Positions 1,012 through 50,191 of a stretch of DNA of 64,000 bases are shown piece by piece. The stretch's first letter is position 1, and every line of letters starts with the position of its first letter. Below the pieces are notes generated by a model, which was not told where the DNA came from, searched no databases, and saw only the letters and a program-made list of their open reading frames with translations. This DNA comes from Escherichia coli (GTDB taxonomy: Bacteria; Pseudomonadota; Gammaproteobacteria; Enterobacterales; Enterobacteriaceae): assembly GCF_002854065.1 (NCBI RefSeq), contig NZ_CP024147.1. The stretch is one strand, 5' to 3'. Both the position numbers and the translations under genes were made by a program.

Positions 1012-1488
1012 ATGAAAACGCCCCTGGTTACCCGGGAAGGGTATGAAAAACTCAAACAAGAGCTAAATTATCTCTGGCGTGAAGAACGCCCGGAGGTCAC
1101 AAAAAAGGTGACCTGGGCCGCAAGTCTGGGCGACCGCAGCGAAAATGCTGACTATCAGTATAATAAAAAGCGTCTGCGTGAAATCGACCGTCGCGTGCGC
1201 TATCTCACTAAATGCATGGAAAATCTCAAAATCGTCGATTACTCCCCTCAGCAGGAAGGCAAAGTCTTTTTTGGCGCGTGGGTGGAGATTGAAAACGACG
1301 ATGGCGTGACTCACCGTTTCCGTATTGTCGGCTACGATGAAATTTTTGGCCGTAAAGATTACATCTCTATCGATTCCCCGATGGCCCGCGCATTGCTGAA
1401 AAAAGAAGTCGGCGATCTGGCTGTGGTGAATACTCCTGCCGGGGAAGCGAGCTGGTATGTTAATGCTATCGAGTACGTGAAACCGTAA
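1012..1488 (+). CDS. greB: Transcript cleavage factor GreB (158 aa)
   Basis: ORF 976..1488 contains MKTPLVTREGYEKLKQELNYLW...; start placed at the MKTPLV methionine. Confidence 0.95.
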   Translation: MKTPLVTREGYEKLKQELNYLWREERPEVTKKVTWAASLGDRSENADYQYNKKRLREIDRRVRYLTKCMENLKIVDYSPQQEGKVFFGAWVEIENDDGVTHRFRIVGYDEIFGRKDYISIDSPMARALLKKEVGDLAVVNTPAGEASWYVNAIEYVKP

Positions 1489-10436: not shown

Positions 10437-10562
10437 GTTGAACATGTGCCAGACGTTGGCGCAGCATTGCTTTGGCAAATCCCTCCCTTCGTTTCCCCGC
10501 GATAATATGACCAACCTCTCATAATTTAAATTTACCCCGCTCTGGTGATTCTCAAACGCCAG

Positions 10563-10584
10563 ATGTTACCCGTATCATTCACAT
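10563..10584 (+). promoter_or_regulatory. Putative GntR operator in the gntT promoter region
   Basis: ATGTTACCCGTATCATTCACAT shares the ATGTTAC half-site with the palindrome upstream of gntK. Confidence 0.3.
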
Positions 10585-10738
10585 GAGTACCAAACATACC
10601 CCTGACATCTGACTACAATAATTAGTTTTAGTGGGTATCAGTCGTGGTGCCGCAATATCTCTGTTCCCGATTGGGATAATTAGAGTTTGTCGTCAGAAAA
10701 TTGACGTTACCCATAACAAATGAAAGGCCAGGTAAATC

Positions 10739-12055
10739 ATGCCATTAGTCATTGTTGCTATCGGTGTAATCTTGTTGTTGCTCCTGATGATCCGCTTCAA
10801 AATGAACGGCTTCATCGCTCTCGTCCTCGTGGCGCTTGCTGTTGGATTAATGCAAGGAATGCCGCTGGATAAAGTTATTGGCTCCATCAAAGCCGGTGTC
10901 GGCGGGACGCTCGGTAGCCTTGCCCTGATCATGGGTTTTGGCGCAATGCTGGGCAAAATGCTGGCAGACTGCGGTGGCGCACAACGTATCGCCACCACGC
11001 TGATTGCCAAATTTGGTAAAAAACACATCCAGTGGGCGGTGGTACTGACCGGTTTTACCGTTGGTTTTGCCCTGTTCTATGAAGTGGGCTTTGTGCTGAT
11101 GCTGCCGCTGGTGTTTACCATCGCGGCTTCTGCGAATATTCCACTGCTGTATGTTGGTGTACCAATGGCAGCTGCACTGTCTGTGACCCACGGCTTCCTG
11201 CCACCGCATCCGGGTCCGACTGCGATTGCCACCATTTTCAATGCCGATATGGGTAAAACCCTGCTGTACGGTACTATTCTGGCAATCCCGACCGTGATTC
11301 TCGCCGGTCCGGTTTACGCTCGCGTGTTGAAAGGTATCGATAAGCCGATCCCGGAAGGTCTGTACAGCGCGAAAACCTTCAGCGAAGAAGAGATGCCGAG
11401 CTTTGGCGTCAGCGTCTGGACCTCTCTGGTGCCGGTAGTGCTGATGGCGATGCGTGCGATTGCCGAAATGATCCTGCCGAAAGGTCACGCTTTCCTGCCG
11501 GTAGCGGAGTTCCTCGGTGACCCGGTAATGGCTACGCTGATTGCCGTGCTGATTGCGATGTTCACCTTTGGCCTGAACCGTGGTCGTTCAATGGATCAGA
11601 TTAACGACACGCTGGTTTCTTCCATCAAAATCATTGCGATGATGCTGTTGATCATCGGTGGTGGCGGTGCGTTCAAGCAGGTGCTGGTAGACAGCGGCGT
11701 GGACAAATACATTGCTTCCATGATGCACGAAACCAACATTTCTCCGCTGCTGATGGCCTGGTCGATTGCTGCCGTACTGCGTATCGCGCTGGGTTCCGCA
11801 ACCGTTGCGGCAATCACTGCGGGTGGTATCGCGGCACCGCTGATTGCAACGACGGGTGTTAGCCCGGAGCTAATGGTTATTGCGGTGGGTTCCGGTAGTG
11901 TGATTTTCTCTCACGTGAACGATCCAGGCTTCTGGCTGTTCAAAGAGTACTTTAACTTGACTATCGGCGAGACCATCAAGTCCTGGTCGATGCTGGAAAC
12001 CATTATCTCGGTGTGCGGTCTGGTAGGCTGTCTGCTGCTGAATATGGTGATTTGA
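10739..12055 (+). CDS. gntT: High-affinity gluconate transporter GntT (438 aa)
   Basis: 438-aa polytopic ORF MPLVIVAIGVILLLLLMIRFKMNGF..., GntP family. Confidence 0.95.
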   Translation: MPLVIVAIGVILLLLLMIRFKMNGFIALVLVALAVGLMQGMPLDKVIGSIKAGVGGTLGSLALIMGFGAMLGKMLADCGGAQRIATTLIAKFGKKHIQWAVVLTGFTVGFALFYEVGFVLMLPLVFTIAASANIPLLYVGVPMAAALSVTHGFLPPHPGPTAIATIFNADMGKTLLYGTILAIPTVILAGPVYARVLKGIDKPIPEGLYSAKTFSEEEMPSFGVSVWTSLVPVVLMAMRAIAEMILPKGHAFLPVAEFLGDPVMATLIAVLIAMFTFGLNRGRSMDQINDTLVSSIKIIAMMLLIIGGGGAFKQVLVDSGVDKYIASMMHETNISPLLMAWSIAAVLRIALGSATVAAITAGGIAAPLIATTGVSPELMVIAVGSGSVIFSHVNDPGFWLFKEYFNLTIGETIKSWSMLETIISVCGLVGCLLLNMVI

Positions 12056-26449: not shown

Positions 26450-26854
<405 letters not shown>

Positions 26855-26912
26855 TTATACATATCACTCTAAAATGTTTTTTCAATGTTACCTAAAGCGC
26901 AATTCTTTGCTA

Positions 26913-26935
26913 ATATGTTCGATAACGAACATTTA
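26913..26935. promoter_or_regulatory. GlpR operator palindrome in the glpD promoter
   Basis: atATGTTCGATAACGAACATtta, a perfect 18-bp palindrome matching the GlpR half-site WATGTTCGWT; overlaps a TAATAT -10-like hexamer about 35 bp upstream of glpD. Confidence 0.75.
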
Positions 26936-26965
26936 TGAGCTTTAACGAAAGTGAATGAGGGCAGC

Positions 26966-43512: not shown

Positions 43513-44715
43513 TTACCTGAACTGATAATGACCTTCGCCCAATCGGATAACCCTTCCCTCTTCTTCTGCGCGGTTCAGCCACACACTAATTTGTTCGATG
43601 GTTAAACCAGTACAAGACGCCAGCCTTTCAATACTTATCGATTCCTTTGCAAGGATCGCCAGTTCCGCCACAAAGAGTTGATAAAAATCGACAGGCGTAT
43701 ACGCGGGCATTACTGCGTAATTTGCGTCATCTTCATGCAGCGAAAACAGTTCTGGTTGAGCGTTACGGAGTGCTCTGTCATACATCAGCCCAGGAACGTC
43801 TGGCAGTCTGATCGTCACATTCTCAGCCTGTTCAGCACTCCATGACGCCCCATTTTCTACTAATCGTGAATTGGCTGATTGCATATCCTGATTTGGTTTA
43901 ACCTGCACAGGCAGCCACTGATGTTTTAATGCCTCCATCGCCCCGGTTATCGTTCCACCGGTCATTCCCGCACGTACAACCATTGCGCTTTCAGCAAGGC
44001 AATAAATATATTTATTTCGCGCCATCGCATTGCCGACGGTGAAACGTACCTCTGGGTAAAACGGCGAAATCAACACCAGGTTGCCTGCTATAAGCCCTTC
44101 ACGCCATTTCACTAACGTACTCGTTTTTAACAAGCTATCAGCTAATACGCCAACGGCAGTTCCCCCGGCCTCCAGTACCGACGCCATTGCACATTCATCA
44201 ATACCTCGCGCACCACCAGAGATAACGCAAATCCCCTGTTGGGCCAGTTTCGCGGCCAGTTGTTGGGTATAGCGCAAATCGTCAGTCGGAGCATCTCGCG
44301 AGCCAACAATCGCCATACCTTCCGCTTGCAGTAATGCTTTATTCCCGCAGCCAAATAAAACGGGAGGTGCATCCGTTCGCAATCGGTTTTTCAAGCGAAC
44401 GGGATAATCAGCATCTCCGCGGGTTAAGATCCATAAACCGGCGCGTTGCCACTTATCTACCGCCAACGCCAGACTATGACCACGCGCCAGCAAGCCAAGA
44501 ATACGCTCCTGAGAAATACGCGGATCGCTCCAGCCTGTAAGTTTCTCTTGCGGTTGCGGCACCAGAAGCTCGGCGGGACTGATACGTTGGTGCTTCAGCC
44601 ATAATGCAAACTTCCCCCATTCACTATTACTAAGAGGTTTATACTCACTCGCCGCCGCGCGAGAAAAATCGCTGGTTAGCAGGAGAGTTGCTTGTGCATT
44701 GGCTGAAAGATTCAT
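43513..44715 (-). CDS. DprA/Smf-like Rossmann-fold protein (about 400 aa), candidate antitoxin of a PsyrTA/ShosTA-like module
   Basis: ORF 43513..44808; DprA signature MAIVGSRDAPTDDLRYTQQLAAKLAQQGICVISGGARGIDECAMASVLEAGGTAVGVLADSL; start favoured at MNLSANAQ, whose ATG overlaps the upstream TGA (ATGA-type coupling). Confidence 0.75.
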   Translation of the reverse strand: MNLSANAQATLLLTSDFSRAAASEYKPLSNSEWGKFALWLKHQRISPAELLVPQPQEKLTGWSDPRISQERILGLLARGHSLALAVDKWQRAGLWILTRGDADYPVRLKNRLRTDAPPVLFGCGNKALLQAEGMAIVGSRDAPTDDLRYTQQLAAKLAQQGICVISGGARGIDECAMASVLEAGGTAVGVLADSLLKTSTLVKWREGLIAGNLVLISPFYPEVRFTVGNAMARNKYIYCLAESAMVVRAGMTGGTITGAMEALKHQWLPVQVKPNQDMQSANSRLVENGASWSAEQAENVTIRLPDVPGLMYDRALRNAQPELFSLHEDDANYAVMPAYTPVDFYQLFVAELAILAKESISIERLASCTGLTIEQISVWLNRAEEEGRVIRLGEGHYQFR

Positions 44716-46822
44716 CAATTTTTTACCGAGGTAGAAGCAAGGGCAAGAGGATAAACCGTCGGGCAACCTGCCTGGCGTAACAGTGCTGTCAGAACTGTCA
44801 GCGTCCATGCAGAATCCACGATATCGTCAACCAGCAACGCCGGACCAGGCATCAAAGGAGGGGTAATCACAAACGCCCCGTCGAGATTTTGACACTGGTG
44901 GAAACGGTTTTGCTGCATTTTCTGCGGTGGATTGTCCACGACTTTTTCAATGGCATCAATAATAGGTAAGCCAAGTTTCGCCGCCAGTCGCCGGGCAAAA
45001 TCAGGAACCAGGTCGAGGTGCTTTAATGAAGGAACGCAGCATACCCAGGTTGGTTCAGGATGCGGATTCCAGCGTTGGCGAACCATTTCCGCACATGCCT
45101 CCACCAGTTCATCACTGAATCGCCCCGTTTTTTTCTCCTGTGCTACCTGCTTTCCCCACCCGGAATCTCCCCAACGAGAAAGGATTCGCCCCGTAGATCC
45201 TTGTAAAATCGCAGGCAAGTTCCCTTTAAATCCGTATTGCGTAAAAGCCCCAGCTGCCACCTGTTTATTGAGATTTAATGACAGGTCAGCGTGTTTAATA
45301 AATAAGTTTGCCGCATGGAGTAAGCCGCTATCAATGTCGGGCGACAACAACGGATGCTGAAGACAACTGCTACATTTACCACAATGTTCGGCACCTGGCT
45401 CATCGAGTGCGCGGCGCAGAAATTGCATTTTGCACTCCTTGGTCGTGATATAGCTTTCAACGTCTGCCAGCTCACTTTTTCTCTGATTCATCAAATGGTT
45501 AATTCGTTCATGGTCAGGAGAAAAACTGACAATTGTTCTGCGCCATAATTTCTCGGTATACACCACAGGCGATGGATTTTCAGCTACCAATAATTTCAGT
45601 GCTTTTTCTATTTGCCCATAACGGAGATTCGTCCGTTGTTCAATGCCTCGTAAGGTAAGACCGTCATTCACGCTAAGTACGTTGAGTATTTCATGAATTT
45701 GCGCCTCCGCAGGAAAGGCGCTTTCACGGAAGAATTTATGAATAGCACGGTCTTCACTGCCGCAAAGCAGTATGCCAACAGCAGAATCGATACCGCGACC
45801 GGCACGCCCCACCTGTTGGTAGTAACCAACTATCGAACCTGGCATCTGGTAATGAATAACAAACCCCAAATCCGGTTTGTCAAAGCCCATTCCCAGCGCC
45901 GTTGTCGCAACCAGCACTTTAATTTTATTTGCCAGCAACGCCTGCTCCAGATATTCCCTGGCAGTATTAGAATCTTCCGCGCCTTCACAAGTCACGCCGC
46001 TGTAGTAAGCAAATGCACTGATACCATTTTTCCTTAACCACTCGGCGACAAGTTCGGCATCGCGAGTAGTCAGGGTATAAACAATTCCCGATTTGGAAAA
46101 CTGAGGGAAAACTGAGGGATAACCGTTGCTAACCATGCCAGACGGGATGACTGTTCACCTAAGACTAAGGCATCAAGCGCCAAACTTTCGCGAGCCAGCG
46201 TTCCACGCTGAATCACAATGTCACCCAATTGCTGACGGATATCCTCAACGACACGGTTATTCGCTGTCGCGGTTGTACCCAGAACAGGGGTATTCGCAGG
46301 TAGTTGGCGCAAAATATCTAATATACGTCGGTAATCCGGGCGAAAATCGTGGCCCCAATCAGAGATGCAGTGCGCCTCGTCGACCACAAGCAAGCCAATA
46401 TGATCGGCTATAGGATATAAAACCGTTTCGATAAAGTCCTGGTTTGCCAAACGTTCCGGGGAAACCAGCAAGCAATCGACCTCACCTTGCAGCAACTTAT
46501 CGCTAATGCGCTGCCATTCTTCTCTGTTTGTAGAATTCAACGTTTCAGCCGTAATACCTAACCGTTCAGCGGCGGCAACCTGGTTACGCATCAGGGCAAG
46601 CAAAGGAGAGATGATAATTGTCGGGCCAGCGCCGCGATCGCGGAAGATTTTACTGGCGATGAAGTACACAGCACTTTTCCCCCAGCCAGTGCGTTGGACA
46701 ACCAGCAGTTTTCGCCGTTGGTTCACCACCGCGTCTATGGCTTCCCATTGCCCTTCCCTGAAAGTAGCGGTGGTATTTCCTAACATCCGCTGTAAAAGCA
46801 ATTCAGCTGCGTGCTTTTCCAT
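44715..46822 (-). pseudogene. RecQ-like helicase fused to a C-terminal PRTase domain (PsyrT/RqlH-like toxin candidate), frameshifted by an 11-bp tandem duplication
   Basis: ORF 46070..46822 has helicase motifs I-III (QRTGWGKS, VVDEAHCISDWGHDFRPDYRRI, GTTATA); ORF 44715..46136 in another frame has helicase motifs IV-VI (YQQVGRAGRG) and a PRTase motif (LLVDDIVDSAWT); deleting one repeat copy at 46096..46117 joins them into about 698 aa. Confidence 0.75.
46095..46119. repeat. 11-bp perfect tandem duplication (GAAAACTGAGG x2) inside the helicase gene
   Basis: Forward ...tttgGAAAACTGAGGGAAAACTGAGGgat...; on the coding strand both frames read PQFS across the copies. Confidence 0.9.
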
Positions 46823-46924
46823 CTTTATCTCCTGCGATCTTTAGGCAGTGATTAGAACGGATTATTTGCAGGTAAATTTGCGAGAGAGATCAAAAAGATG
46901 AAGAGAGGAGAAAAGAGAAATGAA

Positions 46925-46948
46925 TTACTGCGAGCAAGCTCGCAGTAA
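46925..46948 (-). terminator. Hairpin downstream of gntU (candidate terminator)
   Basis: TTACTGCGAGC-aa-GCTCGCAGTAA perfect inverted repeat, then TTCATTTCTCTTTTCTCC on the minus strand; sits between the gntU stop and the helicase start. Confidence 0.5.
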
Positions 46949-46961
46949 TTTGTCGCAGTAA

Positions 46962-48302
46962 TTAACTCAACAGCTGGAACGCAATCATCCCAACGATGGC
47001 ACCGACAGTGCCGAGGATGGTTTCCATCATGGTCCAGGTTTTCAGCGTTTCGGCTTCGGTCGCGCCGGTAAATTTACCGAACAACCAGAAACCAGCGTCG
47101 TTAACGTGGCTGACAACAATCGAACCACCGGCGATACAAATCGACAGCGCCGCCATTTGCGCACCGGAGTAGTTCAGTTGTTCAATAACCGGCATCACCA
47201 GTCCCACCGCCGTTAAACAGGCAACGGTTGCAGAACCCTGAATGATGCGCACTGCAGCGGCCAGCACGAAGCAGGTGATGGCAATCGGCAGGCCCATGCC
47301 GGTTAACGCTTCGCCCAGTGCCGGACCTACGCCAGAGTCAACCAGCACCTGTTTGAACACGCCGCCCGCACCAATCACCAGCAGAATGATCCCCGCCGGT
47401 TGCAGCGCGTGACCGCAAATATCCATCACTTTGTCTTTTGGCATGCCCTGACGCATTGCCAGGCCATAAATCGCTACCAGACAAGCAACCAGAATCGCGG
47501 TAAACGGATGACCAATAAACTCGAACCATTCGTAAGCGGTAGAGCCTTCCGGCACAAAACGCGCGGCAATGGTTTTCAGCCCCACCAGCACCAGCGGCAG
47601 CAGGATCAGCGACAGGCTGAATCCGAAGGACGGCATTTTGCCTTCGCCGAGATGCGGCTCGCTGATGTCGTCAGGAATATGCAGCTCAACGTAACGGCTG
47701 ATGAAGTTACCCCACAGCGGCCCGGCAATAATCATTCCCGGAATTGCCGCACACAGGCCAATCAGGATCATCCAGCCAAAATCGGCGTTCATCTGCGATG
47801 CCAGCAGCATTGGCGCTGGCCCAGGCACCAGGAACGCCGCCGCGGCCGCCACGCCTGCGAATAATGGGATTACCAGCTTCACCAGGTTCGTACCGGTGTG
47901 GCGCGCCATTGAGAAAGCAACGCTAATCAGCAGAACAATCGCCACTTCAAAGAACAGCGGTAGCGCACAGACCAGCCCCGCAAGGCCGATGGCATAATGC
48001 GCGCGGCTGTGACCGAAGGATTTGAGCATTTTGACGGCAATCTGATCGACTGCGCCGGTTTCATGTAAGATCTTGCCAAACATAGCTCCCAGGGCGACAA
48101 CCACCGCCAGGAAGCCGAGGGTGCCTCCCATCCCTTTTTCCATCGTCGCTGCGATTTTATCGAGCGGCATACCGGAAAAAAGGCCAGCCCCCATGGACAC
48201 CACCATTAAAGCCAGGAAAGCGTGCATACGCGCCTTCATGACTAAAAACAGCAGCAGTAAAACAGACCCTACTGCTGTTAAAACAAGCGTTAATGTAGTC
48301 AC
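46962..48302 (-). CDS. gntU: Low-affinity gluconate transporter GntU (446 aa)
   Basis: 446-aa polytopic ORF MTTLTLVLTAVGSVLLLLFLVMKARMHAFLALMVV..., GntP family. Confidence 0.95.
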   Translation of the reverse strand: MTTLTLVLTAVGSVLLLLFLVMKARMHAFLALMVVSMGAGLFSGMPLDKIAATMEKGMGGTLGFLAVVVALGAMFGKILHETGAVDQIAVKMLKSFGHSRAHYAIGLAGLVCALPLFFEVAIVLLISVAFSMARHTGTNLVKLVIPLFAGVAAAAAFLVPGPAPMLLASQMNADFGWMILIGLCAAIPGMIIAGPLWGNFISRYVELHIPDDISEPHLGEGKMPSFGFSLSLILLPLVLVGLKTIAARFVPEGSTAYEWFEFIGHPFTAILVACLVAIYGLAMRQGMPKDKVMDICGHALQPAGIILLVIGAGGVFKQVLVDSGVGPALGEALTGMGLPIAITCFVLAAAVRIIQGSATVACLTAVGLVMPVIEQLNYSGAQMAALSICIAGGSIVVSHVNDAGFWLFGKFTGATEAETLKTWTMMETILGTVGAIVGMIAFQLLS

Positions 48303-48305
48303 TAC

Positions 48306-48833
48306 TTATTTGCCTTTTTTAATAACCTCAATGGTGCTTGCCACAACACCTTCCAGCGGTTGATCGATATCCACCACCAGTACATCGGTTTCGTCCGCAC
48401 CCGGCTCCTGCAGCGTTTCAAACTGCGTCACCAACATTTGGGTTTTAAAGAAATGGCCTTTGCGCGCTTTCAGGCGGCTTTCAATCACATCAAAATCGCC
48501 TTTCAGGTAGATGAAAGAGAGATTCGGATTACCTTCACGCAGCAAGTCGCGATAGTGTTTTTTCAATGCAGAACAGACGATCAGTGACACTTTATTAGTG
48601 CGCTGCATAGCAAACGCGGCGTCGTTCAGCGCCTGCAACCACGGTTTGCGATCGTCGTCATTCAGCGGTTCGCCAGACGCCATTTTTTCGATATTGCGCC
48701 GTGGATGGAGGAAATCGCCATCAAGAAACGCGGCATGAAGTTGATGCGCCACTTCACTGGCGACCGCAGATTTGCCGCTGCCCGATACGCCCATCAAGAC
48801 GTAAATGTGGTGATCATGGTTAGTCGTGCTCAA
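48306..48833 (-). CDS. gntK: Gluconokinase GntK (175 aa), apparent TTG start
   Basis: ORF 48306..48854; product recognised from (M)STTNHDHHIYVLMGVSGSGKSAV; the codon at that start is TTG. Confidence 0.88.
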   Translation of the reverse strand: MSTTNHDHHIYVLMGVSGSGKSAVASEVAHQLHAAFLDGDFLHPRRNIEKMASGEPLNDDDRKPWLQALNDAAFAMQRTNKVSLIVCSALKKHYRDLLREGNPNLSFIYLKGDFDVIESRLKARKGHFFKTQMLVTQFETLQEPGADETDVLVVDIDQPLEGVVASTIEVIKKGK

Positions 48834-48863
48834 AGTGGTGCCCCCACAATACAAGAATTAAAA

Positions 48864-48893
48864 AATGTTACGGGTAACTGTTATCGGTAACAT
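48864..48893. promoter_or_regulatory. GntR operator-like palindrome upstream of gntK
   Basis: AATGTTACgggtaactgttatcgGTAACATT with outer inverted repeat ATGTTAC/GTAACAT, about 30 bp upstream of the gntK start. Confidence 0.55.
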
Positions 48894-48972
48894 TCTCCGG
48901 CCGGACAATATCAGAAGCAATATCCATCCGTGCCTTAAGTGTATAAGTGTGAGCTACTTCAAATTTGTGGGC

Positions 48973-49968
48973 TTAAATAGATCCGCCCGGTGACAAGGTG
49001 AAACCTAAATCTAACATTTTCGGTGTCACAGATTCGCCACGAATACGCGCCAGAAGGCGTTCAGCGCCAATACTGCCCATCCGCTCACGCGGCGTCAGCA
49101 CGCTCGCAAGTCGTGGCTCCATCACCTGACCAATGTCATGACCGTGGAAACCGGCAATCGCCATATCGTCAGGAACTTTTAACCCCAGACGCTGACATTC
49201 AAACGCCGCGCCGACCGCCAGATCATCATTAGTACAGAACACGCCATCCAGCTGCGGATATTCCCGCCGCGCCTGGCGAATCAGTTCAATACCGGAAGAG
49301 TAAGAAGAAGATTGCTCAACCATCACGCTATACGGCACCAGGCCTGCATCCAGCATCGCCTGTTCGTATCCCTTCTGTTTGATGATAGTACGTTCGTCGA
49401 GACGTGCGCCGAGATAGGCAATATGGCGATGCCCGCGAGCAATAATGGCGGTGGTCATCTGGCGTGCCGCTTCAAAGTTATCAAAACCGACGGCGATATC
49501 GAGGCACGGCGACTTGCTGTCCATCAGTTCCACCACGGGAATACCCGCCACTTCAATCATCTTTAAGGTGCGCGGCGTGTGCGTACGTTCAGTGAGGATC
49601 AGGCCGTCGATATTCCAGGAGAGCATGGATTCGAGGCGTTCTTGCTCCATTTCCGGTTTATAACCGTAGTGGGCCAGCATGGTCTGATAACCGTGCGCGT
49701 CGGTGACGCTTTCGATTCCGCGTAATACTTCCGCGAAAACCTGGTTGGTGAGAGAAGGTAACAGGACGCCAATCGCCCGGCTGGTGGCGTTAGAGAGGAT
49801 ATCGGGCGCACGATTGGGAATATAGCCCAGTTCATCAAGAGCCGCGGCAATCTTGCCGCGTAGAGCGACGGAAACCTGCTCCGGGTTGCGTAAAAAACGG
49901 CTGACCGTCATTTTGGTCACGCCTACACGGTCAGCCACATCCTGAAGTACGGGTCTTTTCTTTTTCAT
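48973..49968 (-). CDS. gntR: LacI-family gluconate repressor GntR (331 aa)
   Basis: 331-aa ORF MKKKRPVLQDVADRVGVTKMTVSRFLRNPEQVS... (HTH plus periplasmic-binding-like fold). Confidence 0.95.
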   Translation of the reverse strand: MKKKRPVLQDVADRVGVTKMTVSRFLRNPEQVSVALRGKIAAALDELGYIPNRAPDILSNATSRAIGVLLPSLTNQVFAEVLRGIESVTDAHGYQTMLAHYGYKPEMEQERLESMLSWNIDGLILTERTHTPRTLKMIEVAGIPVVELMDSKSPCLDIAVGFDNFEAARQMTTAIIARGHRHIAYLGARLDERTIIKQKGYEQAMLDAGLVPYSVMVEQSSSYSSGIELIRQARREYPQLDGVFCTNDDLAVGAAFECQRLGLKVPDDMAIAGFHGHDIGQVMEPRLASVLTPRERMGSIGAERLLARIRGESVTPKMLDLGFTLSPGGSI

Positions 49969-50191
49969 CGTCCTGAAGGTACAAAAGAGATAGATTCTCT
50001 TAGTTTAACACGGACGCATCAGAACCTTCCCGGGGAAAACAGTGCTTGTTTACAATTATTAGATATACACTAAATCAATTGCATCGCATTGTGCTAACGA
50101 CGCGGCAAAACCCCGGAAGCGTACATCAGCACGCGACCGGAGCGAGCGAGGAAGCCTGCAAAAAGGCAGGCTTCAAAGATGCCGTTGAGTT

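Follow-up and report, generated by a model that had tools for sequence, protein, structure and literature searches.

GntR operators upstream of gntK and gntT

The gluconate genes in this 64-kb stretch of Escherichia coli chromosomal DNA (the window, by which we mean the whole stretch analysed) raise the question of whether the palindromic sequences upstream of gntK and gntT are operators of one shared repressor, and whether the long element at gntK is a single site or more than one. Our analysis indicates that these sites are almost certainly the canonical GntR operators of the GntI gluconate regulon in E. coli, and the feature is already known, being the textbook GntR operator set of that regulon. 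The original prediction had claimed ATGTTAC-type palindromes at both genes, and a motif search with the GntR dyad found both, each identical to its K-12 counterpart. Its proposal that one LacI-type repressor serves the two units was also borne out, as the product of gntR (48973..49968, minus strand) carries LacI HTH and Peripla_BP domains and the published GntR 16-mers match the sites.

The gntR gene is an intact open-reading frame of 331 aa immediately upstream of the gntK operators, it is annotated as GntR, a LacI-family gluconate repressor, and its product matches the Pfam LacI HTH (residues 8-52) and Peripla_BP_1/3 profiles. Next to it lie gntK (48306..48833, minus strand), a gluconokinase with a TTG start which is supported by the annotation of an identical genome, by its translation and by Pfam kinase folds, and gntU (46962..48302, minus strand), a GntP-family gluconate permease and the second gene of gntKU (annotation; Pfam GntP_permease, E = 4e-189 in gntT and E = 1e-168 here). 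The gene order in the identical RefSeq genome is yhgN, DprA-like, helicase, gntU, gntK, gntR and yhhW. The distant gntT gene (10739..12055, plus strand) is an open-reading frame encoding a high-affinity permease of the same GntP family, in agreement with the K-12 annotation. Over 48300..50000 the window is matched by 5424 of 5426 complete E. coli genomes, with gntR, gntK and gntU annotated. Only 61 of those 5424 genomes share at least 99% identity across gntRK, the others sharing 95-99%, so the window stems from a lineage that is sequenced less often; its nearest matches were strain 100416 (Gambia, stool) and CUWW06 (wastewater).

On the gene (minus) strand the gntK element reads ATGTTACCGATAACAGTTACCCGTAACAT from 48893 to 48865. 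It had been described as one 30-bp palindrome, but it consists of two 16-bp sites of the GntR consensus (ATGTTA-N4-TAACAT), which are offset by 13 bp and share 3 bp. The promoter-proximal operator 1, ATGTTACCGATAACAG (48878..48893, minus strand), has one mismatch to the consensus, whilst operator 2, CAGTTACCCGTAACAT (48865..48880, minus strand), has two mismatches and overlaps operator 1 by the 3 bp.

A generic consensus promoter scan did not call a gntK promoter (score 7 of 12), and the hexamers were assigned instead from cross-genus conservation. The putative -10 hexamer, GAGAAT (48892..48897, minus strand; GACAAT in K-12), is suggested by the sequence and by a GAnAAT pattern shared across genera, and it shares its final two bases with the beginning of operator 1. 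The putative -35 hexamer, TTGCTT (48915..48920, minus strand), lies across a 17-bp spacer and coincides with a peak of cross-species conservation. Taking the start site to be ~7 nt after the -10 hexamer places it at ~48885, so the operator pair would overlie the -10/+1 region of the predicted gntK promoter. Further upstream, a putative cAMP-CRP site, TTTGA-N6-TCACA (48948..48963, minus strand), was identified from the sequence, with both half-sites kept across genera; its centre would be at ~-70.5 to -71.5 from the predicted start.

Upstream of gntT there are two separate sites. Operator 1, ATGTTACCCGTATCAT (10563..10578, plus strand), has one mismatch to the consensus and covers the spacer and the -10 hexamer TATCAT of a promoter-like sequence, TTCTCA-18-TATCAT (10549..10578), with which it coincides. 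The original prediction had this site in place, although its interval of 10563..10584 overshot the end by 6 nt, and it missed operator 2, ACGTTACCCATAACAA (10704..10719, plus strand; two mismatches), which follows operator 1 at a distance of 141 bp and precedes the gntT ATG by 20 bp. Peekhaus and Conway are said to have described a second gntT operator in 1998, with both sites reportedly needed for full repression. A putative cAMP-CRP site, TATGA-N6-TCTCA (10506..10521, plus strand), is identical in K-12, and its centre would be at ~-71.5 from the predicted gntT start (~10585). The gntK and gntT sequences would both be candidates for the 22-bp sites with TGTGA-N6-TCACA cores that class I cAMP-CRP-dependent promoters have near -61.5, -71.5 or -82.5.

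Alignment to E. coli K-12 (NC_000913) showed that all four operators are identical base for base. The spacer between gntR and gntK differs from that of K-12 by three substitutions and the length of one T run, none of them inside the 29-mer: GAGAAT replaces GACAAT in the putative -10 hexamer, T6 replaces T5 after operator 2, and there are two other substitutions. Similarly, none of the differences upstream of gntT touches an operator, a promoter hexamer or the putative CRP site.

Placement of the sites within the window

A search of the 64-kb window for ATGTTA-N4-TAACAT, allowing up to two mismatches, returned five matches against 1.76 expected. Four of the five fell in the control regions of gntT and gntK, which together span 339 bp (0.53% of the window), a clustering with a Poisson probability of ~3.5e-10, and Markov simulations never placed more than one dyad match within those 339 bp. 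The half-site shared between the two genes, ATGTTAC, was also put forward as evidence, and taken by itself this 7-mer had to be rejected; it is not enriched, with 6.06 matches expected and 8 found, a count that 28 of 100 shuffled sequences reached. It is therefore the arrangement as dyads and the position of these dyads, and not the shared 7-mer, that make the observation real and non-random.

The fifth dyad match (26852..26867) was considered as a GntR site and rejected, being located between glpE and glpD and probably unrelated. This intergenic region (26852..26940) contains the two-mismatch dyad match ATGTTATACATATCAC, another ATGTTAC and a palindrome, ATGTTCGATAACGAACAT, which we take to be GlpR-operator-like. 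Half-sites of the ATGTT type are thus not unique to GntR.

Conservation of the gntK control region

Scanning 100,044 species-representative genomes for GTTACNNNTAACNGTTACNNNTAAC returned at least 120 loci. Among the matches listed, 99 of 120 loci had the double site upstream of a GntK homologue (64-99% identical), at a distance of 18-153 bp (median 33), with a GntU homologue next in line. The Enterobacterales genera with the double site, again among the matches listed, included Citrobacter, Enterobacter, Klebsiella, Salmonella, Kluyvera, Photorhabdus, Providencia, Proteus and Edwardsiella. None of the at least 120 matched loci listed was a gntT homologue with upstream sites, the only permease gene of the pair being gntU, downstream of gntK.

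Using the motif as the query makes the conservation of the 18 bases that it fixes a circular finding, and we considered the positions outside the query. An ungapped profile of 95 unique upstream sequences, anchored on the motif, peaked at the AT flanking operator 1, at the adjoining upstream GAnAAT, whose end is this AT, at TTGCTT 17 bp further upstream and at TTTGA-N6-TCACA. GAnAAT was almost invariant across the 95 unique upstream regions, despite being outside the search pattern. We infer that GAnAAT, TTGCTT and TTTGA-N6-TCACA represent the -10 hexamer, the -35 hexamer and the cAMP-CRP site, respectively. The sites thus have the consensus dyad, identity with K-12, overlap with the core promoter (for operator 1 at gntT and, with a predicted promoter, at gntK), an intact LacI-family repressor and conservation upstream of gntK, as is found for GntR operators.

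The 13-bp-offset doubled dyad, TGTTACCGGTAACTGTTACCGGTAACA, was also found outside the Enterobacterales among the matches listed (loci L012, at 1349..1373, L020, L041 and L122, and L004, L050, L075 and L105). In Advenella and in proteobacterial MAGs (Burkholderiales-like) it separates a gene for a LacI-family regulator, which shares 28-30% identity with GntR, from a divergent gene. In Actinobacteria it is directly upstream of large open-reading frames, which by eye are putative glycosidases (beta-galactosidase-like).

Alternative readings of the gntK element

The gntK element might be a single long palindromic operator (~31 bp) that is recognised as a unit by way of the outer arms AATGTTAC (48864..48871) and GTAACATT (48887..48894), both of which were confirmed in the sequence. 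A repeat search does find an inverted repeat here, with 15-nt arms at 48864-48878 and 48880-48894 that are 87% complementary and 1 nt apart, and the 29-mer is perfectly palindromic in Proteus and Providencia. However, the same search found the region to be a 13-nt direct repeat as well, with 13-bp spacing, each 16-bp half on its own matches the consensus of the single gntT sites, and the inner TAAC/GTTA half-sites are conserved as much as the outer ones. The literature describes two overlapping sites (PMC4052901), and an isolated 16-mer works alone (PMC10450161). We regard a single unit as very improbable, the 30-bp super-palindrome arising because two palindromic operators are placed side by side with a 13-bp offset.

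It is slightly less probable still that the repeat and its T run act mainly as RNA, in the form of a hairpin that serves as an intrinsic terminator or attenuator of read-through from gntR into gntK. The repeat lies 79 nt past the gntR stop and is followed on the minus strand by TTTTTT, but the predicted fold is weak (-9.3 kcal/mol, z = -0.75, with 45 of 200 shuffled sequences folding as well), and neither a terminator scan of the gntK region nor Rfam gave a match. Among the matches listed, the T run is missing in most other genera, whilst the DNA dyads are retained; at most, a minor ancillary RNA effect of the repeat may exist in E. coli. The least credible reading is that the sites are used mainly by the paralogue GntH/IdnR, or are chance matches with no function. 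Cross-recognition of sites by GntH/IdnR is documented (PMC4052901), yet gntR is intact and immediately upstream, GntR-dependent function has been demonstrated for these exact sequences (PMC10450161; bioRxiv 10.1101/2023.01.10.523462), and any action of GntH would add to GntR control and not replace it. Chance could draw on the consensus-like match at 26852, probably unrelated to GntR, but it is excluded for the gnt sites by the placement statistics and by conservation among the matches listed. Two overlapping GntR operators at gntK, and two separate ones at gntT, remain our preferred reading.

The PsyrTA-like block downstream of gntU

Homology to K-12 breaks off right at the yhgN stop (43467) and picks up again at that of gntU (46962), from which it follows that the segment 43468..46961 replaces the whole 56-bp yhgN-gntU intergenic region of K-12, including any terminator it holds. 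The segment carries the PsyrTA-like block, which does sit directly downstream of gntU, as had been noted, but it was also called newly inserted and this does not hold: 1650 of 5426 complete E. coli genomes (about 30%) carry the block at 95-100% identity, and it is therefore an old, common accessory segment. It leaves gntR, gntK, gntU and the gntK upstream control region intact.

Within the block, the DprA-like PsyrA gene is intact (43513..44808), whilst the RecQ-like helicase PsyrT is split into two overlapping open-reading frames (46070..46822 and 44715..46136), which cover profile positions 5-241 and 237-687. An apparent 11-bp tandem duplication near 46085..46106, where CCCTCAGTTTT occurs twice, falls at this split and would shift the psyrT frame. 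In two related genomes the gene for this putative toxin helicase is likewise a pseudogene, disrupted by IS5 in strain 100416 and frameshifted in strain 109.

A terminator-like hairpin with a 12-pair stem and a U/C-rich tail (46923..46950, minus strand) begins 11 nt past the gntU stop and has a predicted RNA fold of -16.6 kcal/mol (z = -5.84). This hairpin is probably the end of the gntKU transcript, which makes it plausible that the block lies beyond the regulated unit, as was originally suggested. As the hairpin sits in the replacing segment, the gntU terminator here differs from that of K-12. No sigma-70-like promoter was called between the gntU hairpin and psyrT.

Published evidence and proposed mechanism

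For physical binding, the response to gluconate, activation by CRP and the function of the overlapping pair we draw on the literature. One study gives the exact sequence of gntK operator 1, ATGTTACCGATAACAG, as the site at which GntR acts in the promoter of the gluconate operon, and shows it to be functional in a GntR-based switch (PMC10450161), where function was GntR-dependent and gluconate-responsive and was lost once the site was deleted or split. The same source gives ATGTTACCCGTAACAT as the consensus, citing Porco 1997. The sequence of gntT operator 1, ATGTTACCCGTATCAT, appears in another study as a 16bp E. coli GntR operator from Peekhaus & Conway 1998, and in the purified cell-free biosensor of that study GntR repressed through it and gluconate relieved the repression (bioRxiv 10.1101/2023.01.10.523462). 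Published summaries state that gluconate inhibits the binding of GntR at the gntT promoter and that CRP-cAMP activates the gnt genes, gntT included. Mutation of a repressor site upstream of gntT has been recurrently selected in evolution experiments. A literature search for the gntK promoter found no E. coli promoter work, the results being mostly on Corynebacterium.

In the mechanism that we propose, GntR dimers would occupy the 16-bp ATGTTA-N4-TAACAT dyads when gluconate is lacking. At gntKU, the dyad pair would extend from the end of the predicted -10 hexamer across the start site to about 20 bases into the transcript, so that the bound repressor would exclude or trap RNA polymerase. At gntT, operator 1 would act over the spacer and the -10 hexamer, whilst operator 2, ~125 bp into the leader (about +126 from the predicted start), could be a roadblock or a looping partner. 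Gluconate, on binding to the periplasmic-binding-protein-like domain of GntR, would lower its affinity for DNA and derepress both units, and the putative cAMP-CRP site near -71 in each promoter would add catabolite control and activation. The strain would thereby keep textbook GntR/CRP control of gluconate uptake and phosphorylation, which matters little beyond correct annotation.

The 13-bp offset of the gntK dyads, which is strictly conserved, may reflect a non-canonical mode of DNA occupancy by LacI-family proteins, a suggestion that we offer tentatively and consider rather doubtful. Two dimers may bind on faces ~86 degrees apart, the two registers may be mutually exclusive, or the DNA may be locally unwound. 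If true, this would be a property of the whole family and not specific to this window. The use by two LacI-type dimers of sites at a 13-bp offset is a general question, already raised in the literature.

Comparison with known systems

The closest known system is the GntI regulon of E. coli K-12, which has the same gene order (gntR-gntK-gntU), a LacI-family repressor, the consensus ATGTTACCCGTAACAT and the same 13-bp overlapping pair at gntKU; downstream of gntU the two differ, the K-12 intergenic region being swapped for the PsyrTA-like block here. Ravcheev et al. 2014 (PMC4052901) describe the overlapping GntR sites ~13 bp apart upstream of gntKU as functional, citing Tsunedomi 2003a, and found the ~13-bp arrangement to be kept in more than half of the GntR-regulated operons of the gamma-proteobacteria.

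The paralogous LacI-family regulator GntH/IdnR (GntII) has operators at idnK and idnDOTR which are cross-recognised (PMC4052901), however these control the subsidiary L-idonate/gluconate system, at another locus outside this window. The wider LacI/GalR family (LacI, PurR, GalR and CcpA cre) likewise has 16-bp dyad operators with a C/G-rich centre which overlap the core promoter, and its repressors combine an HTH with an effector domain of the periplasmic-binding-protein type. In lac and gal there is also an auxiliary distal operator, comparable to gntT operator 2. Unlike the generic operators of this family, the gntK sites are offset by 13 bp and overlap by 3 bp at their inner half-sites, an arrangement which Ravcheev et al. 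2014 considered hard to square with known LacI-family DNA complexes and flagged as structurally unexplained for LacI-type dimers.
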